From: Nitrososphaerota archaeon
GTDB taxonomy: Archaea; Thermoproteota; Nitrososphaeria_A; Caldarchaeales; Calditenuaceae
Assembly: GCA_038845265.1 (NCBI GenBank)
Contig: JAWBQR010000004.1
Location: 1 to 44,878, forward strand
Direction of reading: 5' to 3'
Length of the DNA: 44,878 bases
Shown: positions 858 through 23,137 of the stretch, piece by piece
How positions within the stretch are numbered: the stretch's first letter is position 1
How the letters are laid out: each line of letters opens with the position of its first letter
The notes under the pieces: generated by a model
What the model was told of the DNA's origin: nothing
What the model saw: the letters and a program-made list of their open reading frames with translations, nothing else
The model's database searches: none
Translations under genes and position numbers: made by a program

Positions 858-1760
858 ATGAAGGTTCTATTGGTTAACCCGACGTTTGGTGGAGCAAGCG
901 GGACTGGAAGACATGTACAACTGCTCAGTAAAGGTCTACGAGAAGAGGATATCGATGTATCAATACTGGACGGAAGGAATACTTGGAGTCTCAACATACC
1001 TATGATGAAGTCAGCATCTTTCTTAGTGGGCCTCCTTTTCAAAAAATTCCAAGCTGACGTCGTTCATCTTCATAGTCCTAAACTATCGCCACTAATATTC
1101 AAACATCGCAACACGATAATTACTATTCACGGAGGAATGAATGAATATATGCAAAAATACGGACTCATGGGAAGGCTAGTTTCTTCTATATTTTTATCAG
1201 TAATGAAAAAGTCAAGAGTAGTCACTACTGTGTTGAAAACTGAGGCGGAAAGATATGGCTGGACATGGATACCAAACATGACAGATATTAGGACTATTGA
1301 TCAAATAAAACCGATCAATGAGTCATTTGTATTATTTGTGGGTAGAAATGATCCAATAAAGAATTACCAACTCTTTAAGAAAATAGTTACTCGCCTAAAT
1401 CTAAAATACAAAGCATTTGGTGTAGAGGAGATAGCAGATTGGAAAACCGTTATTTCATATATGAAATCAGCAAAATGCCTATTCATCACATCAATTTGGG
1501 AGGGAATGCCATCCGTATTATTAGAAGCATGGGCGGCGGAATGCCCAGTTATTGCAAGTGAGATAGAAGCTTTCCTTCCTTTTCGTGATGCATTGATATT
1601 GAGTAAGCCCAAATTAGAGGAGATGATAAACGCATATAACAATTTAGAATTAGTTAGGGATAAAATTGTTAAAAATGGCAGACGTTATTCAGAAATGTTT
1701 GACTATCCCAAAGTTGTAAAAAAATACTTAAGAATATATGAATACCTCTTGAGTAACTAA
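858..1760 (+). CDS. Glycosyltransferase family 4 (GT-B fold)
   Basis: N-terminal MKVLLV..GGASGTGRHV, LFVGRNDPIKNY, and SIWEGMPSVLLEAWA (E-x7-E motif). Confidence 0.9.
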   Translation: MKVLLVNPTFGGASGTGRHVQLLSKGLREEDIDVSILDGRNTWSLNIPMMKSASFLVGLLFKKFQADVVHLHSPKLSPLIFKHRNTIITIHGGMNEYMQKYGLMGRLVSSIFLSVMKKSRVVTTVLKTEAERYGWTWIPNMTDIRTIDQIKPINESFVLFVGRNDPIKNYQLFKKIVTRLNLKYKAFGVEEIADWKTVISYMKSAKCLFITSIWEGMPSVLLEAWAAECPVIASEIEAFLPFRDALILSKPKLEEMINAYNNLELVRDKIVKNGRRYSEMFDYPKVVKKYLRIYEYLLSN

Positions 1761-16030: not shown

Positions 16031-17860
16031 ATGTGTGCAGAAAGGCAAAAGATTGTCGTTGACACTAGCGCCATTATAAACGGCGAAGTTACTAGATTGA
16101 TACAGAGCGGAGAGTTATCAAATGTCATTATCATAATTCCAGTTGCTGCGCTCGATGAGCTTCAAGCACAGGCCTCCAAGGGACGTACAGAAGGGATGAT
16201 GGGACTATCTGAGATAAAGAAAATCAGGGAACTAGGTATTGAAAAAGGTGTTGAGTTACAGTTCGTTGGCGAGAGACCGAGTCTTGAGGATATAAAGCTG
16301 GCTAAGGGTGGCCGAATAGACGCAATAATCAGAGATGTGGCAAAGAAAGAAGGAGCGACACTTTATACCTCTGATTATGTGCAGTTTTTAGTAGCAGAAG
16401 CCGAAGGAGTTCCGGCTAGATTTCTAATGCCTGAGGAAAAAGTCAAAAAAATAGGCTTTGAATCATTTTTCACCGATGATACAATGAGCGTCCATCTCAA
16501 GGTCGGTGTACCTCCACTTGCTAAAAAAGGTAGGCCAGGAAGCATCAGGCTAGTTAAGTTAAGAGAAGATCCTTTAACTGTTGACGAGATTCAAGGAGTT
16601 ATCTCAGATGTAATGTGGGCTGTGAGACACGCAAATGAGGGATCACTAGAAATTGTTAGAAACAACGCTATAGTTGCACAAATAGGACAGTATAGGGTAG
16701 CTATTACTAAACCACCTTTTAGCGATGACCATGAAGTGACAATAGTTAGACCCATAGTTAAGCTACGGCTAGAAGATTATCATCTAAGCGAGAAACTAAT
16801 GAACAGACTCTCAACCAAGGCAGAGGGGTTACTCATAGCAGGCCCACCGGGCTCAGGTAAAAGCACCTTCGCAAGTAGTTTAGCAGAATTTTATTCGGGA
16901 CTTGGAAAAATTGTTAAGACCTTTGAATCTCCCAGAGACCTTCAAGTAAGCCACGAGATAACCCAGTATGGACCTTTAGAAGGAGATTTCGAGAAAACAG
17001 CCGAGATACTGCTCTTGGTGAGACCGGACTATACAATATTTGATGAAATGAGAAGACCTAAAGATTTTCAAATTTATGCAGATATGCGTCTTGCGGGAGT
17101 AGGCATGGTTGGTGTAATACATGCAAGCGATCCAATAGATGCTATTCAGAGATTCTTGGGCAAAACAGAACTTGGCATGCTGCCGCATATCGTTGATACT
17201 GTAATATTCATTAAAGATGGAATGGTGCAGAGTGTTTATGAGCTCAGACTTGCAGTAAGGGTCCCGACTGGTATGAAGGATGAAGACCTCTCAAGACCGA
17301 TAGTTGAAGTAGTAAACTTCTTGAATGATGAATTAGTTTATGAGATCTACAAGTACGGAGAAGAAACAGTGGTTGTTCCTATAGTATCAGACGAATTATC
17401 AAATGAAGTAGTGGATGAAATCAAGAATAAGATTCTCCGGGCCATTTCTAGAATCACAAAGGATCCATTAATCGAGGTAGTGGCAAAAGACAAAGTAATA
17501 GTAAAAGTTAGCAAGGAAGATATTCCAAGAATTCTTGGTAAAAAAGGACAGACAATTCGGAGCCTTGAGAAAAAACTAAATGTCAGTATATTGGTCGAGC
17601 CAAAAGTTCCGACACTAGGGAAGGAGATAAAATTCAACATCTATGAGAGCGGCAACTCAATAGAGATAAATGTCGATGAGAAATTGCAGGGAGAGCATAT
17701 CAATATTTACTTAAATGATAGATTCTTATTCTCCGCAATAGTGGGGAAACTGGGTAAGATACGCATAAATAAAAATTCAGATATAGGGCGAAGATTGATG
17801 AAGCATCTCATGGCAGGCGAATCGATCAAAATTTATACTGATAAGCAAATAGAAAAATAA
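16031..17860 (+). CDS. PIN-domain + ATPase + KH protein (PINA/VapC-ATPase family)
   Basis: PIN motif VVDTSAII and ELQAQA; GPPGSGKST; RPDYTIFDEMR; KH motif ILGKKG. Confidence 0.92.
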   Translation: MCAERQKIVVDTSAIINGEVTRLIQSGELSNVIIIIPVAALDELQAQASKGRTEGMMGLSEIKKIRELGIEKGVELQFVGERPSLEDIKLAKGGRIDAIIRDVAKKEGATLYTSDYVQFLVAEAEGVPARFLMPEEKVKKIGFESFFTDDTMSVHLKVGVPPLAKKGRPGSIRLVKLREDPLTVDEIQGVISDVMWAVRHANEGSLEIVRNNAIVAQIGQYRVAITKPPFSDDHEVTIVRPIVKLRLEDYHLSEKLMNRLSTKAEGLLIAGPPGSGKSTFASSLAEFYSGLGKIVKTFESPRDLQVSHEITQYGPLEGDFEKTAEILLLVRPDYTIFDEMRRPKDFQIYADMRLAGVGMVGVIHASDPIDAIQRFLGKTELGMLPHIVDTVIFIKDGMVQSVYELRLAVRVPTGMKDEDLSRPIVEVVNFLNDELVYEIYKYGEETVVVPIVSDELSNEVVDEIKNKILRAISRITKDPLIEVVAKDKVIVKVSKEDIPRILGKKGQTIRSLEKKLNVSILVEPKVPTLGKEIKFNIYESGNSIEINVDEKLQGEHINIYLNDRFLFSAIVGKLGKIRINKNSDIGRRLMKHLMAGESIKIYTDKQIEK

Positions 17861-17885
17861 ATTTATTCTAAGATTTCAACAATTT

Positions 17886-18146
17886 TTAGACTTCTTTTAG
17901 TTTGAATTCTTTTCCCTCGCAGTGAACAACTCCTTTCACTCTTCTTATATGAGATACACAGTTAAAACAAACCAGAAAGACAACATCTTGTTTTGCTACT
18001 GGACACTCGACATACTCCTTCTTCATCATAGTTATCATTTTTGAACTTAATGACTTTTTTAAGTATTCAACTAACTGTGAATTTACTTTGAATGCTTTTG
18101 TTCCTTTTTTCACTTCGACGAAGTAGATCGGGGTTCTGTTCAGCAT
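17886..18146 (-). CDS. Small Cys-rich hypothetical protein (putative metal-binding)
   Basis: 86-aa ORF filling the gap, with C-x11-CxxC-x12-C. Confidence 0.7.
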   Translation of the reverse strand: MLNRTPIYFVEVKKGTKAFKVNSQLVEYLKKSLSSKMITMMKKEYVECPVAKQDVVFLVCFNCVSHIRRVKGVVHCEGKEFKLKEV

Positions 18147-18189
18147 ATTTTAGAGTTAGATTATCGAAACAGATTTTTATGTTTATTTC

Positions 18190-18209
18190 TTCGTCACATT
18201 CTTGACGAA
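18190..18209. promoter_or_regulatory. Perfect 7-bp inverted repeat, putative transcription-factor operator
   Basis: TTCGTCA-cattct-TGACGAA ending 3 nt upstream of the TATA box, between divergent genes. Confidence 0.5.
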
Positions 18210-18212
18210 ATA

Positions 18213-18220
18213 TTTATATA
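18213..18220 (+). promoter_or_regulatory. TATA box of the leuA-ilv operon
   Basis: TTTATATA preceded by purine-rich GACGAAA (BRE-like); predicts a TSS near 18244-18246. Confidence 0.65.
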
Positions 18221-18258
18221 AGACACTATTGTCATAATCTTCAAGCGGTGGGGGAATT

Positions 18259-18363
18259 ATTGCTTACAGGCAAAATAACATAACATTAGATGGAACCGAA
18301 AAAACAATAATTATCTTACCCCCACTCGTCATTATTGTAATTCTCCTTCTTGTAGTACTTTAA
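18259..18363 (+). CDS. Putative Ile/Leu/Val-rich leader peptide of the leuA-ilv operon (start uncertain)
   Basis: Frame reads ...IAYRQNNITLDGTEKTIIILPPLVIIVILLLVVL-TAA. There is no in-frame ATG/GTG/TTG. Candidate starts are ATT 18256/18259 after a GGTG SD, or ATG 18290 via a -1 shift at A6. Confidence 0.5.
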   Translation: MAYRQNNITLDGTEKTIIILPPLVIIVILLLVVL

Positions 18364-18373
18364 GGTGGTTCGA

Positions 18374-19921
18374 ATGATTTGGCGTCCTTTTTTGTCTAGA
18401 GAATATGTCTTGCCTGAGCGAGTATATATTTTTGATACCACACTACGCGATGGAGAACAGACTGCGGGCGTCTCCCTTTGCATCGATGATAAATTATCAA
18501 TTGCAGAGGCATTGTCAGATATCGGAGTGGATATAATTGAGGCAGGGTTTCCAGCCGTATCTCCTGGTGAGCTAGATGCAATAAAGCAGATTGTGGAAAT
18601 GGGATTAAGGCCGAAAATTTGTGTTCTCAGTAGATGTGATGAGCGAGATATAGATTTGGCGGCCAATACAGGAGCAGACTGGATTCACTTATTTATTGCT
18701 ACCTCAGATCTACACATGAAGTATAAATTAAGGCTAGCTCCTGAGCAAGTTCTTAGCCGTGCAGTAGAAATGACTCAGTATGCAAAATCATATGGGATGA
18801 CTGTTCACTTCTCTGCGGAAGATGCTACGCGATCTGATTTTGATTTTCTCTTAAAAATATACAGGAGCGTCAAAGAGGCGGGTGCTGAGAGTATAGATAT
18901 ACCTGATACTGTCGGAATTGCTATTCCATATATTATGCGAAATCTAGCACGGATGATTAAAGAAGCTACAGGTATCCCTGTTGCGGTCCATTGTCACGAT
19001 GATCTAGGACTCGCAACGGCCAATACTTTGGCCGGTGTTGAAGGAGGAGCTGAGATAGTGCATGTAACAGTTAATGGAATTGGAGAAAGAGCAGGGAATG
19101 CAAGTCTTGAAGAAGTTGCTGCAGCTCTCAGATTCTTATATGGAATAGATATACGTATAAATCTCTCGAAAATTTGCGAGCTCTCTAGATTGGTTTCTTT
19201 AAAGACAGGCATATTGATACCTAAGAATAAGGCAATCGTAGGTCGTAATGCTTTTTCTCATGAAAGCGGAATACATGTCCATGGCGTAGTAAGCAATCCC
19301 ATCACATATGAGCCAATACTCCCAGAAGAGGTTGGACAATCAAGAAGAATAGTTATTGGCAAGCATTCAGGTACACACGCGGTACAAAAAATCCTAAAGG
19401 AACATGGTTATGATCTCGATCTTTTTCAAGTTAAACAGATTTTAGAAAAAGTAAAAGAGCTAGGCGACAGGGGTGAAAAAGTTTCTGAATACACGCTCCT
19501 AACACTGGTAAAAGAGGTCCTTAAAGGGGAGGCTAAACCTGCTGCATCCGTCATCGATTTCAAATTCTGGGGAGATAATAATATGAATAGAATTATAGTT
19601 GAAATGGATTTTTTAGGTAAAAAGGTTGTTGGGGAGGGTGAGTCTGAACATCTCGTTCATGCATCTATTAATGCAGTCTTATCTGCGTTGAAGGAGATTG
19701 CCAATGATGTTGAGTTTGTTGATTACGATATTTATTATCCACCTAGTGAGGAACGGCACCCGGTCGAGGCAGAAGTTATCCTGAGAATAGATGGACACGA
19801 CTTTATAGGTAGAGGATTAGGCCGAGGAATAGTACACAGCATTTTGAATGCAATGACAAGTGCAATTGGACAATATCTCATGCTCTTTAGGAGGCAAGGC
19901 CTGTTGAGGGAGAATACATGA
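18374..19921 (+). CDS. leuA: 2-isopropylmalate synthase (LeuA; citramalate synthase not excluded)
   Basis: DTTLRDGEQ, HLFIATSDLH, HCHDDLG, GIGERAGNA, HESGIH, GKHSG, C-terminal allosteric domain. ATG 18374 follows an AGGTGG SD; GTG 18365 and TTG 18410 are alternative starts. Confidence 0.85.
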   Translation: MIWRPFLSREYVLPERVYIFDTTLRDGEQTAGVSLCIDDKLSIAEALSDIGVDIIEAGFPAVSPGELDAIKQIVEMGLRPKICVLSRCDERDIDLAANTGADWIHLFIATSDLHMKYKLRLAPEQVLSRAVEMTQYAKSYGMTVHFSAEDATRSDFDFLLKIYRSVKEAGAESIDIPDTVGIAIPYIMRNLARMIKEATGIPVAVHCHDDLGLATANTLAGVEGGAEIVHVTVNGIGERAGNASLEEVAAALRFLYGIDIRINLSKICELSRLVSLKTGILIPKNKAIVGRNAFSHESGIHVHGVVSNPITYEPILPEEVGQSRRIVIGKHSGTHAVQKILKEHGYDLDLFQVKQILEKVKELGDRGEKVSEYTLLTLVKEVLKGEAKPAASVIDFKFWGDNNMNRIIVEMDFLGKKVVGEGESEHLVHASINAVLSALKEIANDVEFVDYDIYYPPSEERHPVEAEVILRIDGHDFIGRGLGRGIVHSILNAMTSAIGQYLMLFRRQGLLRENT

Positions 19922-21651
19922 AAGCAATAAATTTGTTAGTTAAGAAAATGGAAGAAATGGGAGTAGATGTAATTTTTGGCATACCCGGGGGGTCTAATTT
20001 ACCACTCTACGACGCCCTGTACGACTCAGATATAAATAGCATATTGATGAGACATGAGCAACAGGCCGCTCATGCTGCTGATGGGTATGCCAGAGTTAAA
20101 AAGAAGCCAGGAATAGTTACTGCCACCTCCGGTCCAGGAGCGACAAACCTGATTACTGGATTAGTAAATGCCGCAATGGATAGCGTGCCTATAGTTGCCC
20201 TGACAGGCCAAGTCATTCGTCCCTTCATGGGCACAGATGCTTTTCAGGAAGCCGATATTGTTGGACTAGTGCTTCCTCATGTTAAATATGCAACTACAGT
20301 GACAGACTCTATGAGATTGGTTAAGGAATTTGTTAATGCATATCACTGCGCCATTTCAGGTAGACCTGGACCAACGCTATTAGATATTCCGAGGGACGTT
20401 ATGCAAGAAGACATTAGTGAGGATAACAATATTGAGATTGGCCCCGACGAGGAGTTCCGCAGAAAGGCTGGGAAGCCTTCCGAATCAGAGCTCGAGCTGG
20501 CCGCTTCTCTAATATCATCCGCACATAGAATAACTATTCTTGTCGGCGGAGGAGTGCATTTCAGTGGCGCTACTAATGAAGTATTAAGATTGGCAGAGAT
20601 TATAGGAGCTCCAATCGTGACGACTATGCCTGGAAAAACATGTATTCCACAAGATCACCCGTTGGCTATGGGTGTCGTCGGCATGCATGGCAGACTAGAA
20701 GCGGATATGGCAATAATTAATTCTGACCTAGTTATATGCGTAGGTACGAGGCTATCAGATAGGGCTATCGGCCCTCCAACCGAGTTTCAAAAGAACCGAA
20801 AGATAATCCATATCGATATAGATGCGAGCGAGCTGGGTAAGAACGTCTCACCTACAGTCAAGCTAAATGGTGATGCTAAAGAGATTTTACAAAATTTGAT
20901 AAGTAAACTCAGCACCTACAAATTACCAAAAAATGATGCTGAATGGGTGGAAAAGTTACGAGAGCTAAGAAGAGCATATGAAGAATACATTATGAGCCAG
21001 GCGGACGAGTCAAGGATAAATTCATGGAAGCTTATTAAACTTATTAGAGAGGAGCTCCCTAGGTCAGCCATCGTCACGACTGGGGTCGGCCAGCATCAGA
21101 TGTGGGCTCAGCTCTTCTTCGAAGTCCTTGAGCCCGGAACATTCATAACTAGTGCTGGTTTAGGAACCATGGGTTTCGGACTCCCCGCCGCCTTTGGAGC
21201 CAAAGTAGCGGCACCCGATAGACTGGTTGTAAATATTGATGGGGATGGAAGTTTCCAAATGACATGTCAGACATTAAGCAACATCGCAGAGTACAATTAT
21301 CCAGTAATAACGGTTATTTTTGACAACCGTGCACTCGGAATGGTGAGACAGTGGCAAGACCTCTTCTACATGAAAAGATTCAAGGACGTTGACCTAACCG
21401 AGATAACAAACTTTGTTAAGCTCTCGGAAGCCTTTGGAGTTGAGGGAGTTCTAGCACAGAGCTATGACGAAGTTAGAAAAGCCTTGAGAAGAGCAATTAG
21501 AAATGATTATGCAATAGTTATAGATGTCCCAATTGATAAAAATGAAAAAGTTTTTCCAATGGTTCCACCAGGGAAATGGTTAGCCGAGTTTATTGGTCCT
21601 CCGGGGTTTGAGGCACATGGCAAAATATCAGCTTCAGTTATTACTAAGTAA
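19918..21651 (+). CDS. ilvB: Acetolactate synthase large subunit
   Basis: FGIPGG, RHEQQA, TSGPGATN, AFQEAD, GQHQMWA, GLGTMGFGLP, GDGSFQM, GMVRQWQ; ATGA overlap with leuA. Confidence 0.96.
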   Translation: MKAINLLVKKMEEMGVDVIFGIPGGSNLPLYDALYDSDINSILMRHEQQAAHAADGYARVKKKPGIVTATSGPGATNLITGLVNAAMDSVPIVALTGQVIRPFMGTDAFQEADIVGLVLPHVKYATTVTDSMRLVKEFVNAYHCAISGRPGPTLLDIPRDVMQEDISEDNNIEIGPDEEFRRKAGKPSESELELAASLISSAHRITILVGGGVHFSGATNEVLRLAEIIGAPIVTTMPGKTCIPQDHPLAMGVVGMHGRLEADMAIINSDLVICVGTRLSDRAIGPPTEFQKNRKIIHIDIDASELGKNVSPTVKLNGDAKEILQNLISKLSTYKLPKNDAEWVEKLRELRRAYEEYIMSQADESRINSWKLIKLIREELPRSAIVTTGVGQHQMWAQLFFEVLEPGTFITSAGLGTMGFGLPAAFGAKVAAPDRLVVNIDGDGSFQMTCQTLSNIAEYNYPVITVIFDNRALGMVRQWQDLFYMKRFKDVDLTEITNFVKLSEAFGVEGVLAQSYDEVRKALRRAIRNDYAIVIDVPIDKNEKVFPMVPPGKWLAEFIGPPGFEAHGKISASVITK

Positions 21652-21862
21652 TAAGCCAGAGGCTTTAGGAAAACTCATCCTGCTAATAAAGCAGGCACGA
21701 CTCAATTTGATGGAAGCAAACATCAAACGGCAGACAGACGAAATAATAAAGGCACAATTACTAATTGAGGGGAGAGAGGAGAAAGTGAACTGGTTAATTA
21801 CCAAACTAATGTTCTTCCCCTATTTTAAAAGAGTTGAGTATGTCAGTTCAGAGGCGACATAA
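21617..21862 (+). CDS. ACT-domain protein, putative AHAS regulatory subunit 1 (IlvN/IlvM-like)
   Basis: 81 aa; ACT-like pattern YQLQLLLSNKPEALGKL; overlaps the ilvB 3' end. Confidence 0.7.
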   Translation: MAKYQLQLLLSNKPEALGKLILLIKQARLNLMEANIKRQTDEIIKAQLLIEGREEKVNWLITKLMFFPYFKRVEYVSSEAT

Positions 21863-22156
21863 ATGAGTGTGGAAGAACCAAAAAAATTTATAATCAAAAT
21901 AGTCTTAAGCAATAATCAGAACGTTCTCGATGTTATCAAGCAAGTTATAAACTTCCAAGAAGGTGAAGTTAGGAGTTTATATTTAAGTCCAAAAGGATTG
22001 AACGGTGAAAGGGAAATGATAATTGAGTTCGAGGGTAAGGCCCCTTCAGTCAATTCATTGGTGAAAAATATAACTCAAATCGAGGGATGCGTCGAGTCGG
22101 TAGTCACAGAGTTTCCAGCCGCACTTATACAGACAGATGAAGAGGTGGGTAAATAA
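21863..22156 (+). CDS. ACT-like protein, putative AHAS regulatory subunit 2
   Basis: 97 aa; beta-alpha-beta-beta-alpha-beta-like pattern ending LVKNITQIEGCVESV; TAAATG junctions on both sides. Confidence 0.6.
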   Translation: MSVEEPKKFIIKIVLSNNQNVLDVIKQVINFQEGEVRSLYLSPKGLNGEREMIIEFEGKAPSVNSLVKNITQIEGCVESVVTEFPAALIQTDEEVGK

Positions 22157-23137
22157 ATGGCCAAGGTTTATTATGACAAAGACGCAACACTAAGGCCTTT
22201 ACAAGGCAAGACAATATCTGTAATTGGTTATGGAAGCCAAGGAAGAGCACAAGCATTGAATATGAGGGATTCAGGACTAAACGTAATAGTTGGATTACGA
22301 AGAGGGGGAAAAAGCTGGGATGAGGCCGTCAGGGATGGTTTTTCACCAGTAATGATAAAGGAAGCCGCCGCCTTAGGAGATGTCATAATGATGCTAGTGC
22401 CAGATGTGCCGATGCCGGAAATATATGAAAACGAGGTAGCAAAACAACTGACTAATGGGAAGACGCTCGTATTCGCGCATGGTTACAACGTGCATTTCAA
22501 GAGGATTATACCTCCAAATTTCGTAGATGTCGTCTTAGTGGCTCCGAAATCTCCAGGAGCATTGTTAAGACAAAAATTCCTAGAAGGAAAAGGAGTACCC
22601 TCATTGATAGCTGTTTATCAGGACAGGTCTGGTGAAGCTAGACAGACTGCATTGGCAATAGCGAAGGCTATAGGCTCTACTAGAGCAGGCGTCATAGAGA
22701 CGACATTTGAAGAAGAGACAGAAACAGACCTCTTAGGTGAGCAGGCGGTTCTAGTAGGCGGCGTTATGGAGCTTATCAAGAAAGGCTTCGAAGTACTCAT
22801 AGAGAATGGCTACCAGCCGGAGCTAGCTTATTATGAAGTATGCAATGAATTGAAGCTTATAGTAGACCTTATCTATGCCGGAGGACTTACAAACATGCTG
22901 AAGGGTGTTTCAGATACTGCTAAATTTGGTGGATTACTCGTAGGGCCAAGAATAGTTGATGAGCACGTGAAGAAAAATATGATCGAGGCTCTTAAAAGAA
23001 TAAAGAGTGGTGAATTCGAAAAACAATGGACAGGCAATCCTAATGCTTATCAAGATCTTTCAAAAATGATGGCTGAGATTGAGAAGCATCCAATCGAAAT
23101 AGTTGGTAAAGAACTCAGGAGACTAGCATTAATCTAA
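22157..23137 (+). CDS. ilvC: Ketol-acid reductoisomerase
   Basis: VIGYGSQGRAQALNMRDSG, FAHGYN, APKSPG, ETETDLLGEQAVLVGG, VSDTAKFG. Confidence 0.97.
   Translation: MAKVYYDKDATLRPLQGKTISVIGYGSQGRAQALNMRDSGLNVIVGLRRGGKSWDEAVRDGFSPVMIKEAAALGDVIMMLVPDVPMPEIYENEVAKQLTNGKTLVFAHGYNVHFKRIIPPNFVDVVLVAPKSPGALLRQKFLEGKGVPSLIAVYQDRSGEARQTALAIAKAIGSTRAGVIETTFEEETETDLLGEQAVLVGGVMELIKKGFEVLIENGYQPELAYYEVCNELKLIVDLIYAGGLTNMLKGVSDTAKFGGLLVGPRIVDEHVKKNMIEALKRIKSGEFEKQWTGNPNAYQDLSKMMAEIEKHPIEIVGKELRRLALI

Follow-up and report, generated by a model that had tools for sequence, protein, structure and literature searches.

Introduction

The sensing of tRNA charging by ribosomes that translate a leader peptide is a textbook bacterial mechanism. 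The enterobacterial leaders leuL, ilvL and ivbL are short open reading frames (ORFs) with consecutive codons for the end products of the operon, located before leuA or ilvB; they start with AUG and are followed by mutually exclusive terminator and antiterminator hairpins and then by a U-run. A stalled ribosome can also act by translational attenuation, as in the ermC and cat leaders. Here we describe a candidate leader of this kind in an archaeon, in front of the leuA operon of a hot-spring member of the Caldarchaeales (Aigarchaeota, Nitrososphaeria) with a genome of 1.37 Mb. The DNA analysed, hereafter the window, is a stretch of 44,878 nucleotides (nt), positions 1 to 44,878 of contig JAWBQR010000004.1. 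We propose, with a probability of about 0.45, that a translated leader ORF at 18259-18363 senses leucine by ribosome stalling and acts at the ribosome-binding site of leuA.

The codon-run logic is shared with leuL, ilvL and ivbL, but the archaeal leader has no such hairpins and its run abuts a ribosome-binding site. It is like the ermC and cat leaders in that an upstream ORF (uORF) adjoins the regulated gene, with a stall site a few codons before the ribosome-binding site of that gene, and unlike them in the inconsistent predicted sequestration of the Shine-Dalgarno (SD) sequence, in its non-canonical start and in belonging to the domain Archaea. The same likenesses and differences hold with respect to the leaderless polycysteine uORFs of mycobacteria, where runs of codons for one amino acid serve as the cue (bioRxiv 10.1101/834739). 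By its description, the closest analogue would be the actinobacterial LEU element, more than any terminator-type attenuator: a uORF whose Leu codons pair with the SD of leuA, and whose mechanism was left unresolved (PMC1262725, Seliverstov et al. 2005). The LEU element and the archaeal leader both consist of a Leu-run uORF before the leuA SD, with no obvious terminator; complementarity of the run to the SD, described for the LEU element, is short in the archaeal leaders and seen in some of them. The LEU element is bacterial and was described as a conserved pseudoknot (PMC1262725), and homology is not expected. What sets the archaeal leader apart is its SD-like block at the 5' end, its invariant UAUUGCU, where the candidate start is not AUG, and its overlapping mini-ORF.

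A conserved AUU behind an SD, which would make initiation weak and regulatable, recalls Escherichia coli infC, whose AUU start serves autoregulation of a full-length gene by IF3; the archaeal AUU would instead be the start of a leader ORF, and a UUG of the next frame overlaps it. To our knowledge, no leader-peptide attenuator has been described in Archaea. None appeared among the best-matching titles and abstract openings of the literature searched, and the terms 'attenuation' and 'leader peptide' are absent from a 2026 review of termination across domains.

Results

A leader frame of exceptional Ile/Leu/Val density

An earlier note, made from the letters of the window alone, had proposed a ribosome-stalling attenuator with a run of Ile, Leu and Val (ILV) codons in front of the leuA-ilvB-ilvC operon. 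The coordinates that it states are all correct, and its end point, 18376, is the G of the leuA ATG. The features of the leader, all on the forward strand, are the following.

18213-18220 (+): TATA box TTTATATA of the leuA operon promoter, from the sequence
18243-18246 (+): probable transcription start AAGC, placed by the TATA-to-start spacing of the genome itself and by a conserved A(A/G)GCG 5' of the SD-like motif
18247-18254 (+): SD-like purine block GGTGGGGG, candidate ribosome-binding site of the leader ORFs and 5' strand of the proposed long-range helix P1
18258-18264 (+): invariant motif TATTGCT, seven invariant columns in 38 sequences
18259-18363 (+): long leader ORF, in the frame of the earlier note, with no stop before its end in any of the 47 distinct leaders
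18260-18283 (+): mini-ORF TTG CTT ACA GGC AAA ATA ACA TAA (MLTGKIT*), present in 38/38 leaders and 5/5 held-out leaders
18319-18328 (+): CCCCCACTCG, 3' strand of helix P1 by RNAduplex, read as the peptide 'PP'
18343-18360 (+): terminal codon run CTC CTT CTT GTA GTA CTT (LLLVVL); a Leu-rich tail is found in 29/47 leaders
18361-18368 (+): leader stop TAA and adjoining leuA SD GGTGG, the SD itself at 18364-18368
18374-19921 (+): leuA, 2-isopropylmalate synthase, first gene of the operon (Pfam and NCBIfam)

The long frame opens past a TAA at 18235-18237 and, from the candidate start, reads (AUU) A Y R Q N N I T L D G T E K T I I I L P P L V I I V I L L L V V L, stop; an ATG at 18290 belongs to a different frame (MEPKKQ*). 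Codons 18307-18360 are ATA ATT ATC TTA CCC CCA CTC GTC ATT ATT GTA ATT CTC CTT CTT GTA GTA CTT, with the peptide IIILPPLVIIVILLLVVL, followed by TAA at 18361-18363; the run ends 10 nt 5' of the leuA ATG at 18374. Sixteen of these 18 codons are Ile, Leu or Val, as the note had counted, and this density is far above chance and the maximum of the genome: no other of the 86,208 stop-free 18-codon intergenic windows of the genome, taken in six frames, has 16 ILV codons (next locus, 15), and 382,883 in-frame 18-codon windows of called genes reach at most 15. The last 18 residues of the peptide resemble a membrane helix in the window's genus, and the tract 18343-18360 is pyrimidine-rich and partly complementary to the leuA SD.

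The leader, of roughly 130 nt, is also unusually long for this organism, as claimed, with 153 nt from the end of the TATA box to the leuA start codon, whereas 63 of the 187 TATA-like boxes in a crude genome-wide survey end 20-34 nt 5' of a start codon. The TATA box is directly preceded by a purine-rich sequence resembling a transcription factor B recognition element (BRE), CGAAAT, and the transcription start of leuA probably lies about 23-26 nt past the box. One metatranscriptome contig (500 nt, depth 15) spans 18299-18796 and is consistent with a transcript 5' end upstream of 18299, DNA carry-over being possible; concerning the note's demand that transcription should not start downstream of 18360, it agrees with an upstream start without proving it. 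Two runs of raw RNA reads contained none from this organism and are no evidence either way.

Conservation of frame and phase across the Caldarchaeales

A leuA match (E <= 1e-100) was found in 39 of the 41 genomes searched, the host genome included. Extraction of the regions 5' of leuA and removal of duplicates gave 38 distinct leaders with TATTGCT; these, together with four Terraquivivens-type leaders and five from a model search (see below), which were used as a held-out test, make up 47 distinct leaders. The note's frame has no internal stop in any of them (38/38, 4/4 and 5/5, respectively), and therefore chance is excluded. Over the 38 TATTGCT leaders, the ATT frame has 25 stops in sum, all of them terminal, and the other two frames 62 and 55. 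The ORF varies in length from 24 to 37 codons, with at least 11 distinct values, and the CTN run is in phase with ATT throughout.

Within the window's genus, indels inside the leader ORF measure 3, 6 and 3 nt, whereas the spacer that separates the SD from the ATG, past the stop, has two gaps, of 1 nt and 3 nt. ILV codons are preserved in this genus through synonymous or conservative changes (ATT/ATA, GTA/GTT, CTC/TTG), which supports, within the genus, the note's expectation of a conserved frame with synonymous variation among relatives. The stop adjoins or overlaps the SD of leuA and ends 9-11 nt 5' of the leuA ATG in most leaders that are not of Caldarchaeum type (extremes 5 and 16 nt), and in those of Caldarchaeum type the frame stops 14-22 nt within leuA. 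The four distinct Terraquivivens-type leaders have no TATTGCT and carry GGTGAGCAAAGTGAGCC; there the frame one base upstream of the mini-ORF is open to the SD and ends in LALLLL*, LLLLLL*, VVALLL* or LVLLLL*. All five held-out leaders fit the pattern, four of them with a Leu tail. Conservation is thus seen in frame, phase, motif, Leu run and position; the peptide itself is not hydrophobic in other genera (e.g. IAWGYELNPQSPCGAAHTDNARLPLRILLL).

Leucine as the conserved signal

At least three Leu codons among the last eight occur in 25 of the 42 leaders and 4 of the 5 held-out ones, hence 29/47. By a stricter count, frames ending in LLL at the gene start were found in 19/42 ingroup leaders and in 1/120 outgroup leuA loci, the latter taken from a metagenome scan with a LeuA alignment, which used generic patterns and yielded distant leuA genes only. 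Purines inside the Leu run occupy third positions only (CTG), and one congener has TTG for CTC. In many lineages the run also has Ile and Val beside it (RILLL, LVLLL, IILLL), but these two are dense only in the window's AT-rich genus. Judged from these codons, the conserved signal is Leu, and enrichment in Ile and Val is mainly a trait of that genus. The note's proposed control by all three branched-chain amino acids is therefore changed here to a putative control by Leu. The host genome has a gene for tRNA-Leu(GAG).

The note had further suggested that the Pro-Pro of the peptide adds a dependence on archaeal initiation factor (aIF) 5A. This is not supported: PP is not conserved across leaders, and its codons form the C-rich partner of the G-rich SD-like element at the 5' end. 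For leaders of other amino acids, as suggested in the note, a crude scan of the host genome gave 144 run-containing frames, whose six candidates with W or T runs do not lie before cognate biosynthetic genes.

The 5' motif, the start codon and the mini-ORF

The SD-like block is kept as GGTG(G/A) or GAGTGAG in 38/38 leaders. TATA-like boxes lie 27-34 nt 5' of its GTG in the leaders of these 38 relatives, and therefore the block would lie within about 4-11 nt of the probable mRNA 5' end. Behind it, TATTGCT is positioned 74-125 nt 5' of the leuA ATG and holds both a candidate AUU start (18259-18261, with a second ATT at 18256) and an overlapping UUG (18260-18262). The two ATT codons, at 5 and 8 nt past GGTG, are the only candidate starts of the long frame in the window. 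All 43 motif-bearing leaders have the AUU of 18259, with U at position -1, GCU as second codon and the SD-like GGTG 5-8 nt 5' of it; this AUU is plausible as the start of the long ORF, being the best candidate that the alignments offer. The GTG of the SD-like block was considered as a conserved start and rejected: it falls in the frame of the long ORF (frame 2), three codons 5' of the AUU, in 16 of the 38 leaders, in that of the mini-ORF (frame 0) in 19 and in neither (frame 1) in 3, and is therefore part of an SD or pairing element and no conserved start codon.

An AUH start for the leader ORF is plausible because another gene of the Caldarchaeales begins at a conserved AUC preceded by an SD. 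This gene, cimA (citramalate synthase, TIGR00977, 629 bits; contig 8 of the host genome, 78481-80067 on the reverse strand, L112:179-1768:-), has no canonical start and begins ATC GAT TAC..., 5 nt past GGGTG; a start at the first canonical codon would remove the DTTLRDG motif. The ATC is kept in 19 of 21 Caldarchaeales genomes, five of which have a stop codon directly before it, and the other two genomes have TTC instead and a GTG three codons upstream. In Pyrococcus, initiation complexes prepositioned by the SD were reported to scan locally for a start (PMC6237735).

The mini-ORF lies one base downstream of the long frame in 47/47 leaders, led by UUG-CUY in 43 and by GUG in four. In the former UUG is followed by an invariable Leu codon, either CTT or CTC, and then by 3-7 codons that are not conserved before the stop, for a total of 5-9 codons; in the window it could also be read from GTG 18248, as MGELLLTGKIT*. 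The Terraquivivens-type version is an SD-led GTG AGC CAA CTC GAW TAR in 4/4 leaders. The mini-ORF could be a decoy that removes wrong-frame ribosomes initiated at UUG, a first sensor, or part of a choice of start frame. We rejected a programmed -1 frameshift by which ribosomes would pass from the mini-ORF to the long frame, there being no slippery site common to the TATTGCT and Terraquivivens types; the idea survives only in the improbable start-frame variant discussed below.

A sequence-only covariance model (R1) of the 34-nt 5' motif was run on 76 genomes of the order and gave 42 matches in 41 of them, with at most one per genome except for two in the single genome that has two leuA copies. 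Of 30 fetched loci, 28 lie directly 5' of leuA and two are off-target; as the matches are almost all before leuA, the motif is specific to its operon. Seventeen sites with SD and TATTGCTY occur in the host genome, and the four inspected are that of leuA, an intergenic neighbour of tRNA-Cys and two within ORFs. One off-target match (locus L245; genome G022, contig 17, about 924-952, reverse strand) is an AT-rich intergenic site behind a TATA-like box, with an SD-like block and a 6-codon mini-ORF, TTG CTT GAT CGC CTC ACT TAA, no long open frame, and leuA not nearby.

RNA structure and termination signals

Helix P1 is predicted between 18245-18254 and 18319-18328 (RNAduplex, -19.1 kcal/mol, z = -3.0). 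Across the Calditenuaceae the partner of the 5' purine block is a C-rich stretch just 5' of the Leu run, and the two co-vary between genera (GCGAAGGG/CCCTTCGC, GCGGG.GGGGC/GCCC.CCCCGC, GCCGG/CCGGC); in Caldarchaeum, by contrast, the pairing partner of the block directly follows the mini-ORF. When 11 leaders were aligned with MAFFT, which misaligns P1 between genera, RNAalifold gave no consensus fold (-0.28 kcal/mol) and did not recover P1, whose support is therefore by inspection. Pairing between the pyrimidine tract and the SD amounts to just 4-6 bp, in CCUC/GAGG-type hairpins of some leaders. In folding models, the probability that the SD of the window is unpaired rises from 0.24 to 0.39 when the ribosome is stalled, and it also rises in two congeners. 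Overall, the predictions on sequestration of the leuA SD are inconsistent and the picture is ambiguous, with a modelled stalled ribosome freeing the SD modestly.

The attenuation that the note envisaged would be of terminator type in the classical case, for which the anatomy gives no sign: the interval from the leader stop to leuA contains no pair of terminator and antiterminator. A terminator scan found no terminator-like hairpin with a T-run within 18221-18373; two terminator-like matches are nearby, at 18190-18209 before the TATA box and at 18409-18422. Caldarchaeum-type leaders have runs of four or five T 15-35 nt 5' of the ATG, and high-GC relatives have no T-run in the leader. A run of six T at 18388-18393 (+), in leuA codons 5-7 (CCT TTT TTG) and about 40 nt past the Leu run, could be an archaeal pause or termination signal. 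An Rfam scan of 17800-18500 (E up to 10) gave three matches with E of 2.3-5.3 and 15.5-18.5 bits, to be compared with gathering thresholds of 37-100.

Discussion

A proposed Leu-sensing stalling leader

We infer from the comparative data that the leader is translated, that it starts at AUU, that ribosomes stall on it, and also in which direction and at which level its output would lie. The ribosome would be placed by the 5'-terminal SD-like GGUGGGGG and begin at the invariant AUU, an in-frame GUG three codons 5' being available as a start in some lineages, and would then read about 34 codons to the Leu run (Leu, Ile and Val in the window's genus), whose stop abuts the leuA SD. Under a shortage of charged tRNA-Leu, above all of tRNA-Leu(GAG), which reads CUY, it would stall on the run, where it would cover the pyrimidine tract and the C-rich P1 strand, both able to pair with SD-like purines, and halt at least 9 nt short of the leuA SD. 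Such a stall would favour initiation at leuA and perhaps protect the mRNA against decay from its 5' end or against factor-dependent termination. If Leu is plentiful, the ribosome would run to the stop atop the leuA ribosome-binding site and depart. The output would be leuA initiation or mRNA survival and not a choice of terminator, because the anatomy leaves no room for alternative hairpins.

Several observations weigh against a leader that works in this manner. The start codon is its weakest link: the long leader frame has no ATG, GTG or TTG within the window, the Terraquivivens-type leaders have AGT in place of ATT, no AUH at the equivalent place and no consistent start, and aIF1 was reported to disfavour non-canonical starts (PMC6237735). 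The mini-ORF overlaps the AUU and is conserved, yet stalling on the long frame does not need it. The 13 Caldarchaeum-type leaders keep the open frame and have no Leu run. CUY makes up 99 of the 114 tail Leu codons (87%) as opposed to 37% in the genes of the genome, a bias that fits a single tRNA-Leu isoacceptor and a nucleotide-level pyrimidine or anti-SD constraint equally well. Entropy by codon position revealed variability with no third-position excess or periodicity, and therefore no selection on the amino-acid sequence of the leader. Over 22 leaders, the mean unpaired probability of the SD at 37 C is 0.41 both in the free and in the stalled state, and at 70 C it is 0.47 free and 0.61 stalled; local folds around the ribosome-binding site have a mean z of -0.45 with only 6/42 below -1.5 relative to shuffles. 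Finally, in the analogous element of Streptomyces, mutations of the Leu codons were described as not acting as attenuation predicts (PMC1262725).

Alternative explanations

Some of these observations would suit a switch made of RNA alone, where the 5' SD-like block, the C-rich anti-SD strand and the pyrimidine tract compete for the leuA SD and a protein or other cue decides, the open frame and the 'Leu codons' being by-products of a CUY-rich anti-SD tract. This explanation, which we regard as unlikely if worth serious attention, would account for the complementary changes between the 5' block and the downstream C-rich strand across genera, the CUY share of the tail, the short CCUC/GAGG hairpins at several leuA SDs, the variability with no third-position excess and the absence of a canonical start codon; moreover, protein binding was the mechanism preferred for the LEU element by its authors (PMC1262725). 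What it leaves unexplained is one stop-free frame in 47/47 leaders whose other frames have 1-2 stops each, a CTN run in phase with ATT over at least 11 spacings, and in-genus indels that are multiples of three within the frame. Nor do the predictions favour it, given the absent RNAalifold consensus (-0.28 kcal/mol), the inconsistent SD sequestration and the unmatched Rfam families. The working element might otherwise be the mini-ORF (UUG-CUY..., in the window's genus GUG GGG GAA UUA UUG CUU, MGELLL...), on which a ribosome awaiting Leu-tRNA at codon 2, or at codons 4-6, would hold the 5' end and alter downstream folding or ribosome loading, the long frame being secondary. An SD-like block, a canonical UUG, an invariant Leu at codon 2 (CTT/CTC) and a stop within 5-9 codons are indeed found in 43/43 motif-bearing leaders, and the SD-led form in 4/4 of the Terraquivivens type; an in-frame GTG or TTG three codons 5' in 19/38 leaders gives M-x-(L/I)-L-L, and in one genus (g4) the peptide varies conservatively, MLGA(V/L/M/I)N*. 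Nevertheless, the peptide is not conserved between genera, the early stop could equally clear wrong-frame ribosomes initiated at UUG, and a ribosome stalled so early would sit on the very block to which the anti-SD strand pairs, with no consistent alternative fold reaching leuA. As the mini-ORF also gives no cause for the open long frame or the terminal Leu run, we find it rather doubtful as the main element.

Classical transcription attenuation, in which a stall on the ILV codons would let RNA polymerase into leuA, either by favouring an antiterminator over a terminator or, as in tna, by keeping a termination factor off, would agree with the codon run, its site before a biosynthetic operon and the long leader. 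The T-runs of the Caldarchaeum-type leaders and the six-T run inside leuA also speak for it, and the pyrimidine tract could perhaps load a termination factor that prefers U and C. It is improbable all the same: 18221-18373 has no hairpin with a T-run, the run ends too close to the leuA ATG (10 nt) to leave room for alternative hairpins, the leaders of high-GC relatives have no T-run, and the titles and abstract openings that best matched the literature search contain no archaeal case. Least credible of all is a frame with no such role, be it that of a small hydrophobic protein with a single transmembrane segment or one open by chance. The 18 C-terminal residues do look helix-like for a membrane in the window's genus, but the peptide is not hydrophobic in other genera, conservation extends only to the phase, the Leu-rich tail and the location in front of leuA, and 16/18 ILV codons exceed every genic in-frame window (maximum 15). 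A chance frame is excluded by the 47/47 open frames.

A variant of the stalling leader would make use of both frames, the overlap A-UUG-CUY / AUU-GCU acting as a start-frame selector read out by Leu-tRNA. The initiator tRNA, placed by the SD, could pair with two of the three bases of UUG or, equally, of AUU. If Leu-tRNA is plentiful, the CUY in the A site would be filled at once, and the ribosome would commit to the mini-ORF and exit early; with an empty A site, the initiator would re-pair one base back on AUU and GCU would be read, and the ribosome in the long frame would then reach the leuA ribosome-binding site, held by the Leu run. We hold this variant to be quite improbable; if true, it would be an amino-acid sensor that works by choice of initiation frame, and the first ribosome-mediated attenuator described in Archaea.

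The Leu-sensing leader is a candidate with comparative support across an order, and its defined motif, frame and codon run make it directly testable. If it is correct, the coupling of translation to gene control through codon runs arose or persisted outside Bacteria, and such control can act at a ribosome-binding site with no terminator. The Caldarchaeales would then use AUH starts behind strong SDs on at least two genes of branched-chain amino acid synthesis, in the leuA leader and in cimA. For annotation, the case would be a caution that an archaeal 5' leader can contain short ORFs that start with a codon other than AUG and have a function.

The operon and its neighbourhood

The product of leuA matches NCBIfam NF002085 with 536 bits (cut-off 517), and 3' of it lies the gene for the large subunit of acetolactate synthase, ilvB (TIGR00118, 646 bits). 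The operon has the order leuA-ilvB-(two small ORFs)-ilvC, the last encoding ketol-acid reductoisomerase, and ends at 23137. The gene ilvB directly follows leuA in 65/65 ingroup loci, duplicates included. At the place expected for ilvN, between ilvB and ilvC, are two adjoining small ORFs at 21617-21862 and 21863-22156 (+), of 81 and 97 amino acids (aa). Neither has a Pfam match at E <= 0.001, and the 97-aa ORF (21863-22156) has a faint NCBIfam match to the C-terminal part of RelA/SpoT (E = 0.12); the pair may be a split or divergent regulatory subunit.

An inverted repeat, TTCGTCA-N6-TGACGAA, at 18190-18209 (+), just 5' of the BRE and TATA box of leuA, could be a transcription-factor site; the palindrome is not preserved in either of the two congeners. 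Further upstream lies a divergent ORF of 86 aa (17886-18146, reverse strand) that matched no Pfam family and has scattered Cys residues in its C-terminal half (ECPVAK..., VCFNCVSH..., VVHCEG). It is preceded, on the strand of leuA, by a gene for a 609-aa protein (16031-17860, +) with PIN, T2SSE-type ATPase and KH domains, all three of them weak Pfam matches.

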